DNA of 7,176 nucleotides from Escherichia coli (GTDB lineage Bacteria; Pseudomonadota; Gammaproteobacteria; Enterobacterales; Enterobacteriaceae), in the NCBI RefSeq assembly GCF_965641715.1, contig NZ_OZ282458.1, one strand, 5' to 3'. Shown here piece by piece: positions 2,090 through 6,034 of the stretch. A program made the position numbers and the translations under genes. Every line of letters starts with the position of its first letter. The first letter of the stretch is position 1. Below the pieces are notes generated by a model that saw only the letters and a list, made by a program, of their open reading frames with translations, had not been told where the DNA came from and did not search any database.

Positions 2090-2280
2090 TTTCAGCAGTC
2101 TCTGGCTGGCAATTCCTGCGTGATTCACATGGCTGCATAGCTATGCATGTGGTTAAAATTTACCGGGTGCGATCGCGGCAGTTTTTCGGGTGGTTTGTTG
2201 CCATTTTTACCTGTCTGCTGCCGTGATCGCACCGAACGCGTTTCTGCGGTGCGGGCAACGGATGTTATGGTAAATACAAT
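2090..2280. other. cer: cer-like plasmid multimer resolution site (XerC/XerD core plus upstream accessory region with an ARG-box-like palindrome).
   Basis: The XerC-type arm GGTGCGGGCAA is at 2248-2258. A 6-bp central region CGGATG is at 2259-2264. The XerD arm TTATGGTAAAT at 2265-2275 is identical to the cer XerD arm. Upstream, GCCATTTTTACC...GCTGCCGTGATCGC..GAACGCGTTT resembles the cer accessory sequence. The palindrome TGCATAGCTATGCA at 2134-2147 lies about 107 bp upstream, where an ArgR box is expected. Confidence 0.75.
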
Positions 2281-2300
2281 ATGCAGCCAGTCTTAGAGAC

Positions 2301-2329
2301 GAAAAGTCCGCCCAGAAGACTGACTTTTC
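2301..2329 (-). terminator. Possible transcription terminator hairpin downstream of the 68-aa gene (8-bp stem GAAAAGTC/GACTTTTC, 13-nt loop, weak U tail).
   Basis: There is a perfect 8-bp inverted repeat at 2301-2308 and 2322-2329, 4 nt after the stop at 2333-2335 on the minus strand. The trailing sequence is only moderately U-rich. Confidence 0.3.
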
Positions 2330-2332
2330 AGA

Positions 2333-2539
2333 TCAACCTTCAGCATCTAACTTGTCTATCGCTTTTTTATTGCGCCGATAGGTAGCCATTAGTTCACCAT
2401 CGCCTGATTGTAAGTCACGACCTGCTTGCTCAGCATAGGTATCGTTTACAGTCTTAGCGCCTTTTTTATAGGCCTTTTTAACATCATCAAATCCGGCTTG
2501 GATGACTTCTTTCGGCTTTTCTTGAGGTAATTTAGCCAT
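2333..2539 (-). CDS. Hypothetical small basic protein (68 aa), the second gene of a coupled two-gene operon.
   Basis: Its ATG (rc of 2537-2539) lies inside the overlap ATGGCTAA with the stop of the upstream 127-aa gene, which implies translational coupling. It is Lys-rich and hydrophilic. I recognise no family by eye. Confidence 0.5.
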   Translation of the reverse strand: MAKLPQEKPKEVIQAGFDDVKKAYKKGAKTVNDTYAEQAGRDLQSGDGELMATYRRNKKAIDKLDAEG

Positions 2540-2915
2540 GCTGTGAATCCTCTATAAGGTTGATTATTTTTCCAACAGATAAGACGGCATCTTCTGTGTC
2601 GCTGATTTTATGATTTATCCAACCGTCCTCTATCTTTAATTTGTTCACTACTCCTAATGTAAAAACAACCTTTTTTTCAGGAAAGAAAATTGCAAAGGTT
2701 CTACTTTTCTCTTTCCAATCAGAGGGCGGCGTCGAACGGAACGCTACATTCCTCGATTTAAGTATCGCTTTGATTTTACTAATTAATTCTTTTTTTTGTT
2801 TATTGCTGAGATTTTTGACGAACCCTTTGCTGAGATTGTCTGTGTAATCATCAAAAGAAATATCAACTGGTTTGTTTTTTTGTTTTTTATCAGATAGATG
2901 AACAATGTTTGACAC
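2532..2915 (-). CDS. Hypothetical Lys-rich protein (127 aa), GTG start, AT-rich foreign gene.
   Basis: GTG start at 2913-2915 (rc), preceded by AGGA 6 nt upstream. An in-frame stop lies 10 codons upstream, so no longer ORF is possible. The protein has no internal Met. Its stop overlaps the start of the 68-aa gene. Codon usage is about 30% GC, unlike the plasmid backbone. Confidence 0.5.
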   Translation of the reverse strand: MSNIVHLSDKKQKNKPVDISFDDYTDNLSKGFVKNLSNKQKKELISKIKAILKSRNVAFRSTPPSDWKEKSRTFAIFFPEKKVVFTLGVVNKLKIEDGWINHKISDTEDAVLSVGKIINLIEDSQHG

Positions 2916-3059
2916 TGGATATCCTGCTTTTTGATGAATGAATACTCAGAAGAGTAGCGGAACTGTCTTGTTAGTCACAGAGGTAGAGTATCAATTCTAC
3001 GATAGATGGGTTCGAAGATCCGGCTGAGACCGTTCAGTACGCGGTCGAGATGTTATGTT

Positions 3060-3097
3060 GGGGTCTGAAGTCCAATGGAACGAAAACGTACGTTAGT
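3060..3097 (+). mobile_element. Solo 38-bp terminal inverted repeat of a Tn3-family transposon (gamma-delta/Tn1000-like). The GGGG outer end is at 3060 and the element interior points rightward.
   Basis: GGGGTCTGAAGTCCAATGGAACGAAAACGTACGTTAGT matches the Tn3 IR GGGGTCTGACGCTCAGTGGAACGAAAACTCACGTTAAG at 30 of 38 positions. Its core CCAATGGAACGAAAACGTACGTTA matches the gamma-delta IR as I recall it. I found no inverted partner copy anywhere in the window. Confidence 0.7.
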
Positions 3098-3519
3098 GAA
3101 GTAACTGTATGATATATCAAGACATAATAGACATAGAAAAACGCCATCAAAACGGTGTCTTTTTAATCGAAAATTGGCACTTAACGGACGGCATTGTCTA
3201 CTAATCGATTTTTAAGACGATAATTTTCCTCTTACCGTACATTTTCGTACGGTTGGCCCTCAAACCCCATGTTCAATGTAATGACCGTCGAAATTGCCTT
3301 TACGGGCATGAAGCAACCAGGAGCAATCATTGGCAAAGGTAACTAGAGTTCAATGCATGGTAATCATTTTTGAGCTTGTGATGCATAGAGTTGGTTGCTG
3401 TTCCATTGCGTCTCAAACTCCGTCAAGATGCTCGCCGTAAAAGCGAGCATGTCTAGTATGCCTGTTCCGCTACTGATTTTTGATGGGCGAATTCAGGGCT
3501 GGCTAGCCACCAAGAAAAA

Positions 3520-4581
3520 TTACTTTATTTCATCAAACAGGTGAGATGCAGTATAATAAACGCTTTGATCAAAGCGTCTCTCTGGGCTTAATTTATTTTG
3601 CCCGCCATTTAAAATTATTTCTTTTAATACTGATGGTGGAAGGATGGGTTTTGTTCTTCTTGGGTGATCCATATAAGCTTTTGTTATTTTTCCGTTTAGC
3701 GAGAACTCTTTATCACTTTGATATCCAAAGTTCATCTCAGTATAAATTCTATTGATGTTTGTCTTGTTTTTGCTCGCAATTTCATACACCATTCTGGCGA
3801 GTCTGGCTGATGATCTCATTAGTCTGCTGGCAGATGAATTGTTATATGAGGATCTATCAATAAAGGTTCGACACAAAGCAAAATCACTCCAGATGAATAT
3901 GTCAAAGGCATTTTGATCTAATATTGGGCTCTTGCCTTTTGTTTTCCATAATGGTTGCATTAAAAAAGGTTTCTGGTAATCAAGAAAATTTTCTTGGAAA
4001 GTGTTTAGGCAATTTAATATATTTTCTTTCTTTGAAAGAACTTCAGTTTCATTCCCCCAGTGCTGTATGCTTTCGCATGTGGATTCAAATATTTTTCTTA
4101 TTTCATGGAATTTATCGCTGCAAGAGTGCATTATGCCAAGGGCACAATAAGAAGTGCTTGCAGGTCTTATTACAATCTCTGAACTCCATTCGCTCTCGTT
4201 TTCTTTATATGTCGTGCTATCTGGGAGTACGGTTAATTTTATTTCTAGTGCTTTTAAAAAACTATTGTTTCCTTTTATAACTAGATCTATTCCTTTTATG
4301 TCATCATAAGCATACTGTTGGTATGGTTCATATTTTTTCTCAAATTGAAATTCAAGATCACTATTTTTTAATGTTGTGTTAAAAACGAAGTCAAAAGATA
4401 CTTCTTTGGCATGCACTTTTAAATCCTTATCTAAATAAAGATAAATCGGATTCATTTTGTTGTCTCTCATATAACATGCTAGAGAGGTGGGAAAAGAACT
4501 GTTAAATTGGTTCTTTCCCCACAGATCGCTCTCTTTCCTGTTGGTGTTTTTTAAACCATAAAGAGATTCTATTTTGCTCAC
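3520..4581 (-). CDS. Candidate Type II restriction endonuclease (353 aa) with a PD-(D/E)xK-like motif, divergent from the C5-MTase gene. GTG start with a strong AGGAG RBS.
   Basis: The ORF has low GC like the MTase. It sits head-to-head with the MTase, 87 bp apart. GID(99)...LE(113)IK(115) fits D-x13-E-x-K. The GTG start is 6 nt after AGGAG, and an in-frame stop just upstream rules out a longer ORF. I cannot place it in a named REase family by eye. Confidence 0.55.
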   Translation of the reverse strand: MSKIESLYGLKNTNRKESDLWGKNQFNSSFPTSLACYMRDNKMNPIYLYLDKDLKVHAKEVSFDFVFNTTLKNSDLEFQFEKKYEPYQQYAYDDIKGIDLVIKGNNSFLKALEIKLTVLPDSTTYKENESEWSSEIVIRPASTSYCALGIMHSCSDKFHEIRKIFESTCESIQHWGNETEVLSKKENILNCLNTFQENFLDYQKPFLMQPLWKTKGKSPILDQNAFDIFIWSDFALCRTFIDRSSYNNSSASRLMRSSARLARMVYEIASKNKTNINRIYTEMNFGYQSDKEFSLNGKITKAYMDHPRRTKPILPPSVLKEIILNGGQNKLSPERRFDQSVYYTASHLFDEIK

Positions 4582-4592
4582 TTTTTGCTCCT

Positions 4593-4612
4593 GACGTCAA
4601 TTTATTGACGTC
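4593..4612. promoter_or_regulatory. Perfect 9-2-9 inverted repeat GACGTCAAT-TT-ATTGACGTC in the R/M divergent intergenic region. It is a candidate operator.
   Basis: It is exactly palindromic, checked base by base. It directly abuts the AGGAG RBS of the endonuclease gene at 4588-4592 (rc) and lies about 57 bp upstream of the MTase ATG. TTGACG within it is a -35-like hexamer. Confidence 0.4.
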
Positions 4613-4668
4613 TATGGTGTGTTTCTATATCATGATGTGGAGTGATATGATAATGAGTTTTTTATGTT

Positions 4669-5826
4669 ATGAGAATAATTGATCTTTTTAGTGGGTGTGG
4701 GGGGTTATCCCTAGGCTTTTTGAAGGGGGGGTTTGATGTTGTAGGTGCTTATGATTTCTGGGATCCTGCTATTGAATGTTACAGAGATAATTTTAGCCAT
4801 CCGATAAAAAAACTAGATTTGAGCAATGTTGATGATGTGGTGAGGGAGCTTAAAGATATAGACTTCGATATGATTATTGGAGGGCCTCCTTGCCAAGACT
4901 TCAGTCATGCAGGTTTAAGAATTGAAGGTGCTAGAGCTAACTTAACTCGCTCATTTTCAGAAATTATAAAAAGAATAAAGCCAAAGTGGTTTGTGATGGA
5001 AAATGTAGATCGGGCATTAAGAAGTGGTGCCTATTTAGAAGCTCGAGGAATCTTTAAAGAATCAGGGTATGGGTTAACAGAAATTGTTTTGGATGCCAGT
5101 AAGTGTGGTGTTCCGCAAAAAAGAAAAAGATTATTTGTAATTGGAAAGCTTGACGTGAGGGATGGTTTTATCCTTAACGAAGTGATGTGCGGGATATCGA
5201 AAGATAGTATGACAGTTAGAAATTATCTTGGTGATTCATTGGGGATTGAGTATTATTACAGACATCCGAGAAATTATAACAGAAGGGCTATTTTCTCTAT
5301 TGATGAACCTGCGCCAACAGTAAGAGGGGTTAATAGACCGATACCTGATGGATATTTAGGGCATGCAGGCGATCCTGTCAGTATTTCTGAGAATGTAAGG
5401 CCATTAACAACCTTTGAAAGAGCAAGATTGCAAACATTTCCTGAAGACTTTAAATTTAAAGGTGCAAAAACAAATTTGGAGCAAATGATAGGTAATGCTG
5501 TTCCGGTTGAGTTAGCAAAATATGTTGCGGTGACAATCATGGAGTATGAAAAAAAACAAGTAAAAGGTATTTATGATAAAGAAGGCTTTAGGGCGTGGTT
5601 GCTGAATGAAAAGAAACTAACAAAAAGAACCTCTAGCGATATTATATCTAGATGTTGCAGAGGTGTTTCATTTTTTGATTCAGAGGGGGTGGATTTTTAT
5701 AACTGTGAAATAGATGAAATTATTATGAAACTGGAAAGGCTTGAATCGTTTGTCAGGCTTGGGGTTAGCCTGAAGTCTCAGTTAAGAAGGGCTTTTAAAT
5801 TATATTACGAATATTGTCGAAGGTAA
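4669..5826 (+). CDS. DNA (cytosine-5)-methyltransferase, HaeIII-like short-TRD architecture plus a C-terminal extension of about 90 aa.
   Basis: Motif I is DLFSGCGGLSLGF. Motif IV is GGPPCQDFS. Motif VI is ENV. Motif VIII is QKRKRLFVIG. Motif IX is RPLTTFERARLQTFPEDF. Motif X is GNAVPVELAKYVA. They occur in canonical order. It is close to the M.HaeIII N-terminus as I recall it (FSGAGGLDLGFQKAGF / GGPPCQSWS). An additional 90 aa or so follow motif X. Confidence 0.92.
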   Translation: MRIIDLFSGCGGLSLGFLKGGFDVVGAYDFWDPAIECYRDNFSHPIKKLDLSNVDDVVRELKDIDFDMIIGGPPCQDFSHAGLRIEGARANLTRSFSEIIKRIKPKWFVMENVDRALRSGAYLEARGIFKESGYGLTEIVLDASKCGVPQKRKRLFVIGKLDVRDGFILNEVMCGISKDSMTVRNYLGDSLGIEYYYRHPRNYNRRAIFSIDEPAPTVRGVNRPIPDGYLGHAGDPVSISENVRPLTTFERARLQTFPEDFKFKGAKTNLEQMIGNAVPVELAKYVAVTIMEYEKKQVKGIYDKEGFRAWLLNEKKLTKRTSSDIISRCCRGVSFFDSEGVDFYNCEIDEIIMKLERLESFVRLGVSLKSQLRRAFKLYYEYCRR

Positions 5827-5875
5827 TAAATACGAATTTATGTCTCTCAGGGGAGGGGGAGGGGATAAAAAGATC

Positions 5876-5926: not shown

Positions 5927-6034
5927 ACAAAAAAACCACCGCTACCAACGGTGGTTTGTTTGCCGGAATCTAGAGCTACCAACTCTTTCTTCCGAAGGTA
6001 ACTGGCTTGGTGGAGCACAGATACCAAATACTGT
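5927..6034 (-). ncRNA. RNAI: RNAI antisense copy-number control RNA (108 nt).
   Basis: The rc of 5927-6034 begins ACAGTATTTGGTATCTG... and ends ...GGTGGTTTTTTTGTT, matching the ColE1 RNAI ends. Three stem-loops are preserved, with a few substitutions relative to pMB1. Confidence 0.85.

Follow-up and report, generated by a model that had tools for sequence, protein, structure and literature searches.

A 209-bp IS101-family miniature element in a ColE1-type mobilisable plasmid of Escherichia coli

Positions 3060–3268 of the window (the whole stretch of DNA that was analysed, 7176 bp) are very probably a complete 209-bp TIME (Tn3-derived inverted-repeat miniature element) of the IS101 family, which entered the plasmid by replicative transposition of the Tn3-family type. 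This kind of element is known, and so is its mechanism; the form found here is slightly divergent and common among plasmids of E. coli.

Read from its sequence, the window is a whole ColE1-type mobilisable plasmid, the backbone of which also carries a cer site, an RNAI/oriV replicon and rop. The genes and regions that matter here are the following.

Roughly 40–1830: mbe/mob genes, in several overlapping frames
2276–5867: accessory region, AT-rich, 3.6 kb
2333–2539 and 2532–2915, minus strand: two small overlapping ORFs
3274–3519: native spacer outside the element, between the stop codon of the restriction gene (3520, minus strand) and the small operon
3520–4581, minus strand: gene of a HindVP-family restriction endonuclease, with its stop codon at 3520
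4669–5826, plus strand: gene of a C5 cytosine methyltransferase

The IS101-type element sits in the 604-bp spacer between the stop codon of the endonuclease gene and the start of the small operon, with the insertion point 144 bp upstream of the first start codon of the latter. The small operon (2333–2915, minus strand) consists of two genes, coding for 127 and then 68 amino acids, with an 8-bp overlap. These two ORFs, and a 49-amino-acid ORF at 3395–3544, were assigned to no family in Pfam, NCBIfam or PADLOC. The layout of the small operon is toxin–antitoxin-like; nothing else backs a toxin–antitoxin reading.

The element, its target duplication and the empty sites

The features of the element and of its immediate surroundings are listed below.

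3036–3059, plus strand: larger part of a degenerate cer/Xer-like core, the last 4 nt of which are now at 3274–3277
3055–3059 (left copy) and 3269–3273 (right copy): 5-bp target-site duplication, ATGTT, directly outside both inverted repeats
3060–3268, plus strand: probable IS101-family TIME, 209 bp, ORF-free
3060–3097, plus strand: left terminal inverted repeat (IR), 38 bp, GGGGTCTGAAGTCCAATGGAACGAAAACGTACGTTAGT, the 38-mer of the preliminary description
3106–3219: putative res site with three subsites, 114 bp
3106–3133, plus strand: res subsite I-like, 28 bp, half-sites TGTATGATA and TGTCTATTA, centre AA
3141–3158: short hairpin between A and T runs, terminator-like, in the spacer of res subsites I and II
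3156–3189, plus strand: res subsite II-like, 34 bp, half-sites TGTCTTTTT and (C)GTCCGTTA
3195–3219, plus strand: res subsite III-like, 25 bp, half-sites TGTCTACTA and CGTCTTAAA
3231–3268, minus strand: right terminal IR, 38 bp, inverted, reverse complement GGGGTTTGAGGGCCAACCGTACGAAAATGTACGGTAAG
3384–3421, minus strand: third Tn3-family IR-like 38-mer, degenerate, GGAGTTTGAGACGCAATGGAACAGCAACCAACTCTATG, in native DNA

A preliminary description of this region had recognised the left IR at its exact position, and had correctly assigned it to a gamma-delta-like end with the interior of the element to the right. This 38-mer matches the IR of Tn1000 (gamma-delta) at 33 of 38 positions, taking as reference the F plasmid record, in which the ends of Tn1000 are at 4191 and 10171; the match to the IR of Tn3 is 30/38. 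The same description had found no second IR in the window. There is one, in inverted orientation at 3231–3268, which is 28/38 identical to the left IR and 33/38 identical to that of Tn1000, and ATGTT is present at both ends. A repeat search of the window returned the corresponding 37-nt inverted pair (3059–3095 and 3233–3269).

From end to end the element is made of an IR of 38 bp, 8 bp, the putative res site of 114 bp, 11 bp and the second IR of 38 bp, and nothing more. The ORF list contains no ORF of at least 40 amino acids inside the 209 bp, and, as had been stated before, the ORF list and a protein family scan reveal no transposase or resolvase gene in the window. The 7176-bp plasmid has one copy of the IS101 family: no other IR match within 3 mismatches was found, the next best being 23/38. 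A TIME-COMP around the restriction–modification (R-M) genes was considered and rejected, since it requires two flanking TIME copies and the plasmid has a single one. The definition of the TIME class that we applied consists of Tn3-type IRs of about 38 bp, a size of 50–500 bp, no transposase, a 5-bp duplication and an empty site. In the case of 3060–3268, the IRs, the size, the lack of a transposase, and the duplication together with the empty site are all found, in addition to the similarity to IS101 and the res site.

The earlier suggestion that the segment may hide a res site proved to be a good one: by its sequence and geometry, 3106–3219 is a putative res site. The succession of subsites and spacers (28 + 22 + 34 + 5 + 25 = 114 bp) is identical to that of gamma-delta res; the length of subsite II becomes 35 if the right half-site is taken as CGTCCGTTA. 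In an in-register alignment with the gamma-delta res of the F plasmid (the tnpR–tnpA intergenic region of Tn1000), the interior of the element is identical at 59 of 114 positions, a modest 52%, compared to 31.8 ± 4.6 for shuffled sequences (z = 5.9), and this position gives the best score on either strand of the whole window. The six half-sites fit the TGTCYNNTA-type motif about as well as gamma-delta's own half-sites do.

The insertion itself can be read from related plasmids. A megablast search of PLSDB with the whole window returns near-identical plasmids that vary in size, and five of these sister plasmids were aligned over 2900–3560. Three of them, L001 (6965 bp), L003 (6715 bp) and L004 (pEC34B, 6952 bp), are shorter here by exactly 214 bp, the 209 bp of the element and one ATGTT; apart from this gap, the flanks are essentially the same as in the window. 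The other two, L002 (NZ_CP148354.1, 10,981 bp) and L005 (7178 bp), are occupied by the element. The empty site reads GAG-ATGTT-ATGTT-CAATG, with the junction sequence AGTACGCGGTCGAGATGTTATGTTCAAT; in the occupied site, the element is followed by a third ATGTT. The preliminary description had recommended a search for a 5-bp target-site duplication in related plasmids, and ATGTT and the empty sites of L001, L003 and L004 are what this search gave. Judging by the pattern of coverage, the site is occupied in 4 and empty in 17 of the 21 PLSDB records of the lineage, whose plasmids are 97–99% identical and yet polymorphic for the element. The exact 214-bp difference is the textbook signature of a Tn3-family insertion. 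Elements of the Tn3 family do not excise precisely, so the empty form is the ancestral one. The insertion at 3060–3268 is recent.

We propose the following sequence of events. A gamma-delta/Tn1000-type transposon in the same cell would have provided TnpA in trans; TnpA would bind both IRs and link them to the target, cut at ATGTT with a stagger of 5 bp. A cointegrate with two copies of the element would then arise by replication, and this cointegrate would be resolved at the internal res site by a TnpR of the Tn3/gamma-delta type, or by RecA. The end product would be the element flanked by the 5-bp duplication. The dependence on the TnpA of Tn1000 and the use of the res site are expected by analogy with the published work on canonical IS101. 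Neither a helper transposase nor a resolvase is encoded in the window, so that we infer both the identity of the helper and the current mobility of the element.

Divergence from IS101, distribution and possible helpers

IS101 was found in pSC101, is 209 bp long and encodes no transposase (PMC4133298; PMC13367494). It forms cointegrates with the transposase of Tn1000 provided in trans, and its res site works poorly with the resolvases of Tn3 and Tn1000 (PMC4133298; PMC13367494); the mobilisation in trans is credited to Ishizaki and Ohtsubo 1985, as cited in these two papers. IS101 is now placed among the TIMEs, as TIME-IS101 (PMC4133298; PMC13367494).

The alignment of 3060–3268 with IS101 of pSC101 (NC_002056, 2024–2232) is ungapped and extends from end to end, with 193 of 209 positions identical (92.3%, E = 1e-86), the element running along pSC101 in the order 2232–2024. 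This identity is below a 95% threshold of the isoform type, so that the window element does not count as the same isoform but as a divergent member of the family. The 16 substitutions include two in each IR, five in res subsite I, four in the spacer of subsites II and III and one in subsite III; subsite II is the same in both, and so is the spacer of subsites I and II, except for two positions. The hairpin at 3141–3158 is unchanged in canonical IS101. The centre of subsite I is AA in the window element and GA in canonical IS101, and the perfect half-site is swapped. Both IRs of the variant score 33/38 against the IR of Tn1000, which is also the score of canonical IS101.

In the pSC101 reference (L006, 2024–2232), IS101 has no matching 5-bp duplication (GATAT on one side, TTTGA on the other). 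Its right flank, TTTGAGCGTGGCAAG, on the tet(C) side of pSC101, also lies beside IS101 in Aeromonas pRAS3.3, and the same flank with IS101 is present in contigs labelled Advenella, Limnohabitans and Peptococcaceae (L011, L012, L014 and L020 are the set that shares it). Either IS101 and the adjoining DNA of the tet(C) region move as a larger unit, or these contigs hold vector-like sequence.

The element is widespread. It has matches in 1754 PLSDB plasmids, mainly of Klebsiella, Escherichia and Citrobacter; in 431 of these the match extends over at least 80% of the element. At least 80% of the element is present in 183 of 5426 complete E. coli genomes, and 394 of the 396 places where it occurs are on plasmids. 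At an identity of at least 99%, and with partial matches included, the window variant accounts for 123 E. coli records vs 9 for the pSC101 form: among complete E. coli genomes, the variant predominates. A 2026 survey of TIMEs (PMC13367494) used a cut-off of 95% identity and coverage, below which the window variant falls. It may be that the prevalence of the IS101 family is underestimated, as surveys that require 95% identity would miss a variant at about 92%. A scan of genome contigs with a pattern made of 50 nt of the conserved interior returned four loci only, which is too few for a census.

Twelve copies of the family were taken out with their flanks, so that their contexts could be compared. 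Copies 99–100% identical to that of the window are found in four further unrelated flanking contexts (L015–L018), and independent 5-bp duplications border other copies of the family: a contig of Vibrio mytili has TTAAC and a plasmid of E. coli AATTA. Several copies, including that of pSC101, lie at rearrangement junctions and have no target duplication, which fits replicative or intramolecular events and indicates that not every copy came by simple insertion.

These data bear on the idea that the 209 bp are a true IS101-family insertion that has since become an immobile fossil, passive cargo whose altered IRs and subsite I block the response to TnpA and TnpR. The 16 differences from the IS101 that has been tested experimentally are concentrated in subsite I and also affect both IRs, the two IRs are only 28/38 identical to each other, and the window has no helper. 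On the contrary, 99–100% identical copies occur in at least four other unrelated contexts, the occupancy is polymorphic in a plasmid lineage that is 97–99% identical, the variant is far commoner than the canonical form in E. coli, and its IRs are as close to that of Tn1000 as those of canonical IS101. We consider it quite unlikely that the element is a fossil.

Regarding the helper, a Tn1000-like tnpA (at least 80% covered) is present in 170 of the 5426 E. coli genomes, so that a helper is available in this species. In L015 (NZ_CP025895.1, 4001–4652), the final 442 bp of a Tn1000-like transposon, which comprise the 3' end of tnpA and an IR, lie directly beside a 100%-identical copy of the element. 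PGAP labels the junction as a partial 'Tn3 family transposase', and there is no target duplication. This junction suggests an insertion into a Tn1000-like element that was followed by a deletion. Many large plasmids of E. coli, as well as one chromosome, also contain isolated 66-bp fragments of the right end (query 144–209, 98.5% identity).

The classes of partial matches in PLSDB contain no closer autonomous parent. The interior matches at 76% in Klebsiella pQil-type plasmids (L008) have no resolvase or transposase beside them, the short IR-only matches (L009, L024 and L025) lie next to ars or blaKPC without an intact helper, and the 66-bp right-end matches (L007) are isolated fragments only. 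One of the occupied sister plasmids, L002, also carries a Tn3-family transposon of about 3.8 kb at 5978–9760, inserted in mbeA, with co-directional tnpR and tnpA and an ATTAC duplication. This transposon is unlikely to have been the helper: its IRs (GGGGTTCCGTGGGCATTTCTGCG... and GGGGTTCCGTGGGCATTTCTGCGATAACACACGCTAAG) are unrelated to those of the element, except for the GGGG and ...ACGCTAAG ends.

The adjoining spacer and the accessory modules

Beyond the right copy of the duplication, the DNA belongs to the plasmid. The segment 3269–3519 is found only in the 21 PLSDB plasmids of the lineage of the window, at an identity of at least 99% and including those with an empty site; in the empty-site sisters it is contiguous with 2916–3059. 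It is native spacer of the accessory module, unrelated to the transposon. The same distribution speaks against a larger conserved unit in which the 209 bp and 3269–3519 are always found together. The preliminary description had taken the whole of 3098–3519 as transposon DNA. This is right for 3098–3268, which is inside the element, and wrong for 3269–3519, so that the element accounts for no more than 171 of the 422 bp that had been assigned to it beside the IR; the description had named as contrary to its own reading the outcome that this DNA is native and unrelated to any transposon, and this outcome is half borne out. The absence of any ORF of at least 60 amino acids from 3098–3519 is confirmed (the only ORF is the one of 49 amino acids at 3395–3544), and the GC content, which had been estimated at about 45%, is 41.9%.

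It had also been suggested that the segment encodes a non-coding RNA, and a small RNA or another structured regulatory element could in principle be sought in 3269–3519, which is ORF-free, at least 99% conserved in the lineage and contains a hairpin with an 8-bp stem at 3427–3451. However, a search of the whole window against Rfam at gathering thresholds returns only the RNAI of the replicon, and a permissive search of 2850–3650 gives no match at E up to 1. The folding of 3269–3519 is no better than that of shuffled sequences on either strand (z = −0.6 and −0.2). There is no sigma-70-like promoter in 2850–3650, and the sole terminator-like site of that interval is inside the IS101 element, which gives no ground for a regulatory role. 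As to conservation, it is uninformative, as all 21 copies are near-identical. A small RNA or other structured regulatory element in this spacer is very unlikely.

Another possibility is that the 209 bp came by recombination between two res sites, or by homologous exchange with a plasmid that bears the element, rather than by transposition at this place. The element does carry what looks like a res site, and the copies mentioned above that lie at rearrangement junctions show no duplication. On the contrary, the window and the empty-site plasmids have identical sequence on both sides of the element, and the duplication is of exactly 5 bp, which is the signature of Tn3-family transposition, while the res route needs a second res in the target and makes no duplication. 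We therefore find recombination extremely improbable as the origin of this copy, and return to transposition.

The limits of the accessory modules can be located by comparison with other plasmids. The backbone homology with a sister plasmid that has an EcoRI R-M system (L022) ends at 2275/2276 and resumes at 5868. The segment 2248–2275 is the cer core, GGTGCGGGCAA-CGGATG-TTATGGTAAAT, and the homology with L022 ends right after its XerD arm. The window is 85% identical to the cer site of ColE1 over 2130–2278, and the core was checked in the ColE1 record; the model used for cores of the cer type is an 11-bp XerC arm, a central region of 6–8 bp and an 11-bp XerD arm. No Tn3-type IR is present at the module boundaries 2275/2276 and 5867/5868, where the closest plus-strand sequence scores 20/38, as expected by chance; these boundaries are the cer core and the edge of the replicon.

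The reading that we regard as least credible of all, to which we give next to no weight and which is refuted for 3060–3097, is that of a solitary IR left by a deletion or by one-ended transposition, with 3098–3519 as the degraded interior of a transposon that brought the R-M module and/or the small operon: the window indeed has no tnpA or tnpR, and the IR-like sequence at 3384–3421 leaves room for an older Tn3-family event in the spacer, but the 209-bp unit has an IR at each end and a perfect 5-bp duplication outside, nothing has been deleted from it, the empty sites keep 3269–3519 joined to 2916–3059, this segment occurs in the plasmid lineage of the window and in no transposon, and nothing IR-like marks the cer core or the replicon edge. 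The R-M genes and the small operon are also present in sister plasmids into which the element never inserted. The R-M module was thus in place before the insertion, and the element captured neither this module nor the small operon, contrary to what the preliminary description had suggested for one or both of them.

The IR-like sequence at 3384–3421 matches the gamma-delta IR at 26 of 38 positions, with 18/22 in the outer part, and is the best match of the window once IS101 is removed; 26/38 was reached by none of 1000 dinucleotide shuffles. It has no partner IR in the window, and the comparison of the copies of the spacer, all near-identical, is uninformative. It may be an old relic or a product of chance, and is the one remaining support for the relic reading.

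If not by a transposon, how were the modules assembled? The small operon acts as a separate module, and a ColE1-type plasmid of Cronobacter has it without the R-M genes. This Cronobacter plasmid (L026) shares only 2248–3055 with the window, that is the cer core and the small operon, and the homology ends exactly at the IS101 target. L026 has cer-like cores at 2791–2818 and 3577–3604. The second, at the junction, reads CGTACGCTATC-GAGATG-TTACGGTAAAT and is 20/28 identical to L026's own cer core (P = 0.005), with 16/17 over the central region and the XerD arm (0/1000 shuffles). The corresponding, more degenerate candidate core of the window is AGTACGCGGTC-GAGATG-TTATGTT|CAAT in the occupied form and AGTACGCGGTC-GAGATG-TTATGTTCAAT in the empty-site form; the latter is 18/28 identical to the window's own cer core, the top non-self match, with P = 0.16 when taken alone. 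The ATGTT target is inside the part that resembles a XerD arm, which means that the insertion split the Xer-like core.

There are precedents for small plasmids of the ColE1 type that exchange modules at Xer sites (Tran et al. 2012 and Zakharova et al. 2002, as cited in PMC6764390). The sequences at the boundaries argue that the accessory modules of the window were probably assembled by recombination of the Xer type and not by a Tn3-family transposon.

A bolder proposal, which we put forward tentatively and hold to be rather unlikely, is that IS101 hit, instead of a random AT-rich place, a degenerate second cer/Xer-like core joining two Xer-bounded modules, the small operon (2276–3055) and the HindVP-type R-M unit, that it locked both together and added a res site, and that the AA/GA difference isolates the lineages. 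If this were so, the core would have been destroyed, and the res site, dependent on resolvase, could fuse the plasmid to conjugative plasmids bearing Tn1000 or Tn3; the AA or GA crossover dinucleotide of subsite I could then separate the variant and canonical IS101 in terms of recombination.

Implications and comparison with known systems

That a complete IS101-type element is present implies that, not long ago, the plasmid and a gamma-delta-type transposon were in the same cell. By homology, the plasmid would carry a portable res site and two ends able to bind transposase, and it could drive cointegration with conjugative plasmids. The main value of the result is for annotation, since gene callers miss miniature Tn3-derived elements and a lone IR is easily misread as a scar.

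The closest relative of the window element, IS101 of pSC101, has the same size of 209 bp, 38-bp IRs of the gamma-delta type and the same internal res layout, and both belong to a mainly plasmid-borne family with 5-bp target duplications; the two differ by the substitutions described above.

Tn1000 and Tn3, both autonomous transposons of the Tn3 subgroup, resemble the element by their IRs (33/38 and 30/38, respectively) and by the equal spacing of res subsites I, II and III. Tn1000, Tn3 and the window element have in common a 5-bp target duplication and an AT-rich target. Unlike Tn1000 and Tn3, the window element lacks tnpA, tnpR and any passenger genes, and it would depend wholly on functions provided in trans.

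Last, the enterobacterial TIMEs TIME244/MITEEc2, MITESen1 and IMU and the TIME-COMP composites are, like the element described here, non-autonomous miniature elements, have IRs of the Tn3 family and 5-bp duplications, and reside mostly on plasmids (PMC13367494). They differ from it in the subgroup of their IRs, which is Tn21-like for TIME244 and IMU.
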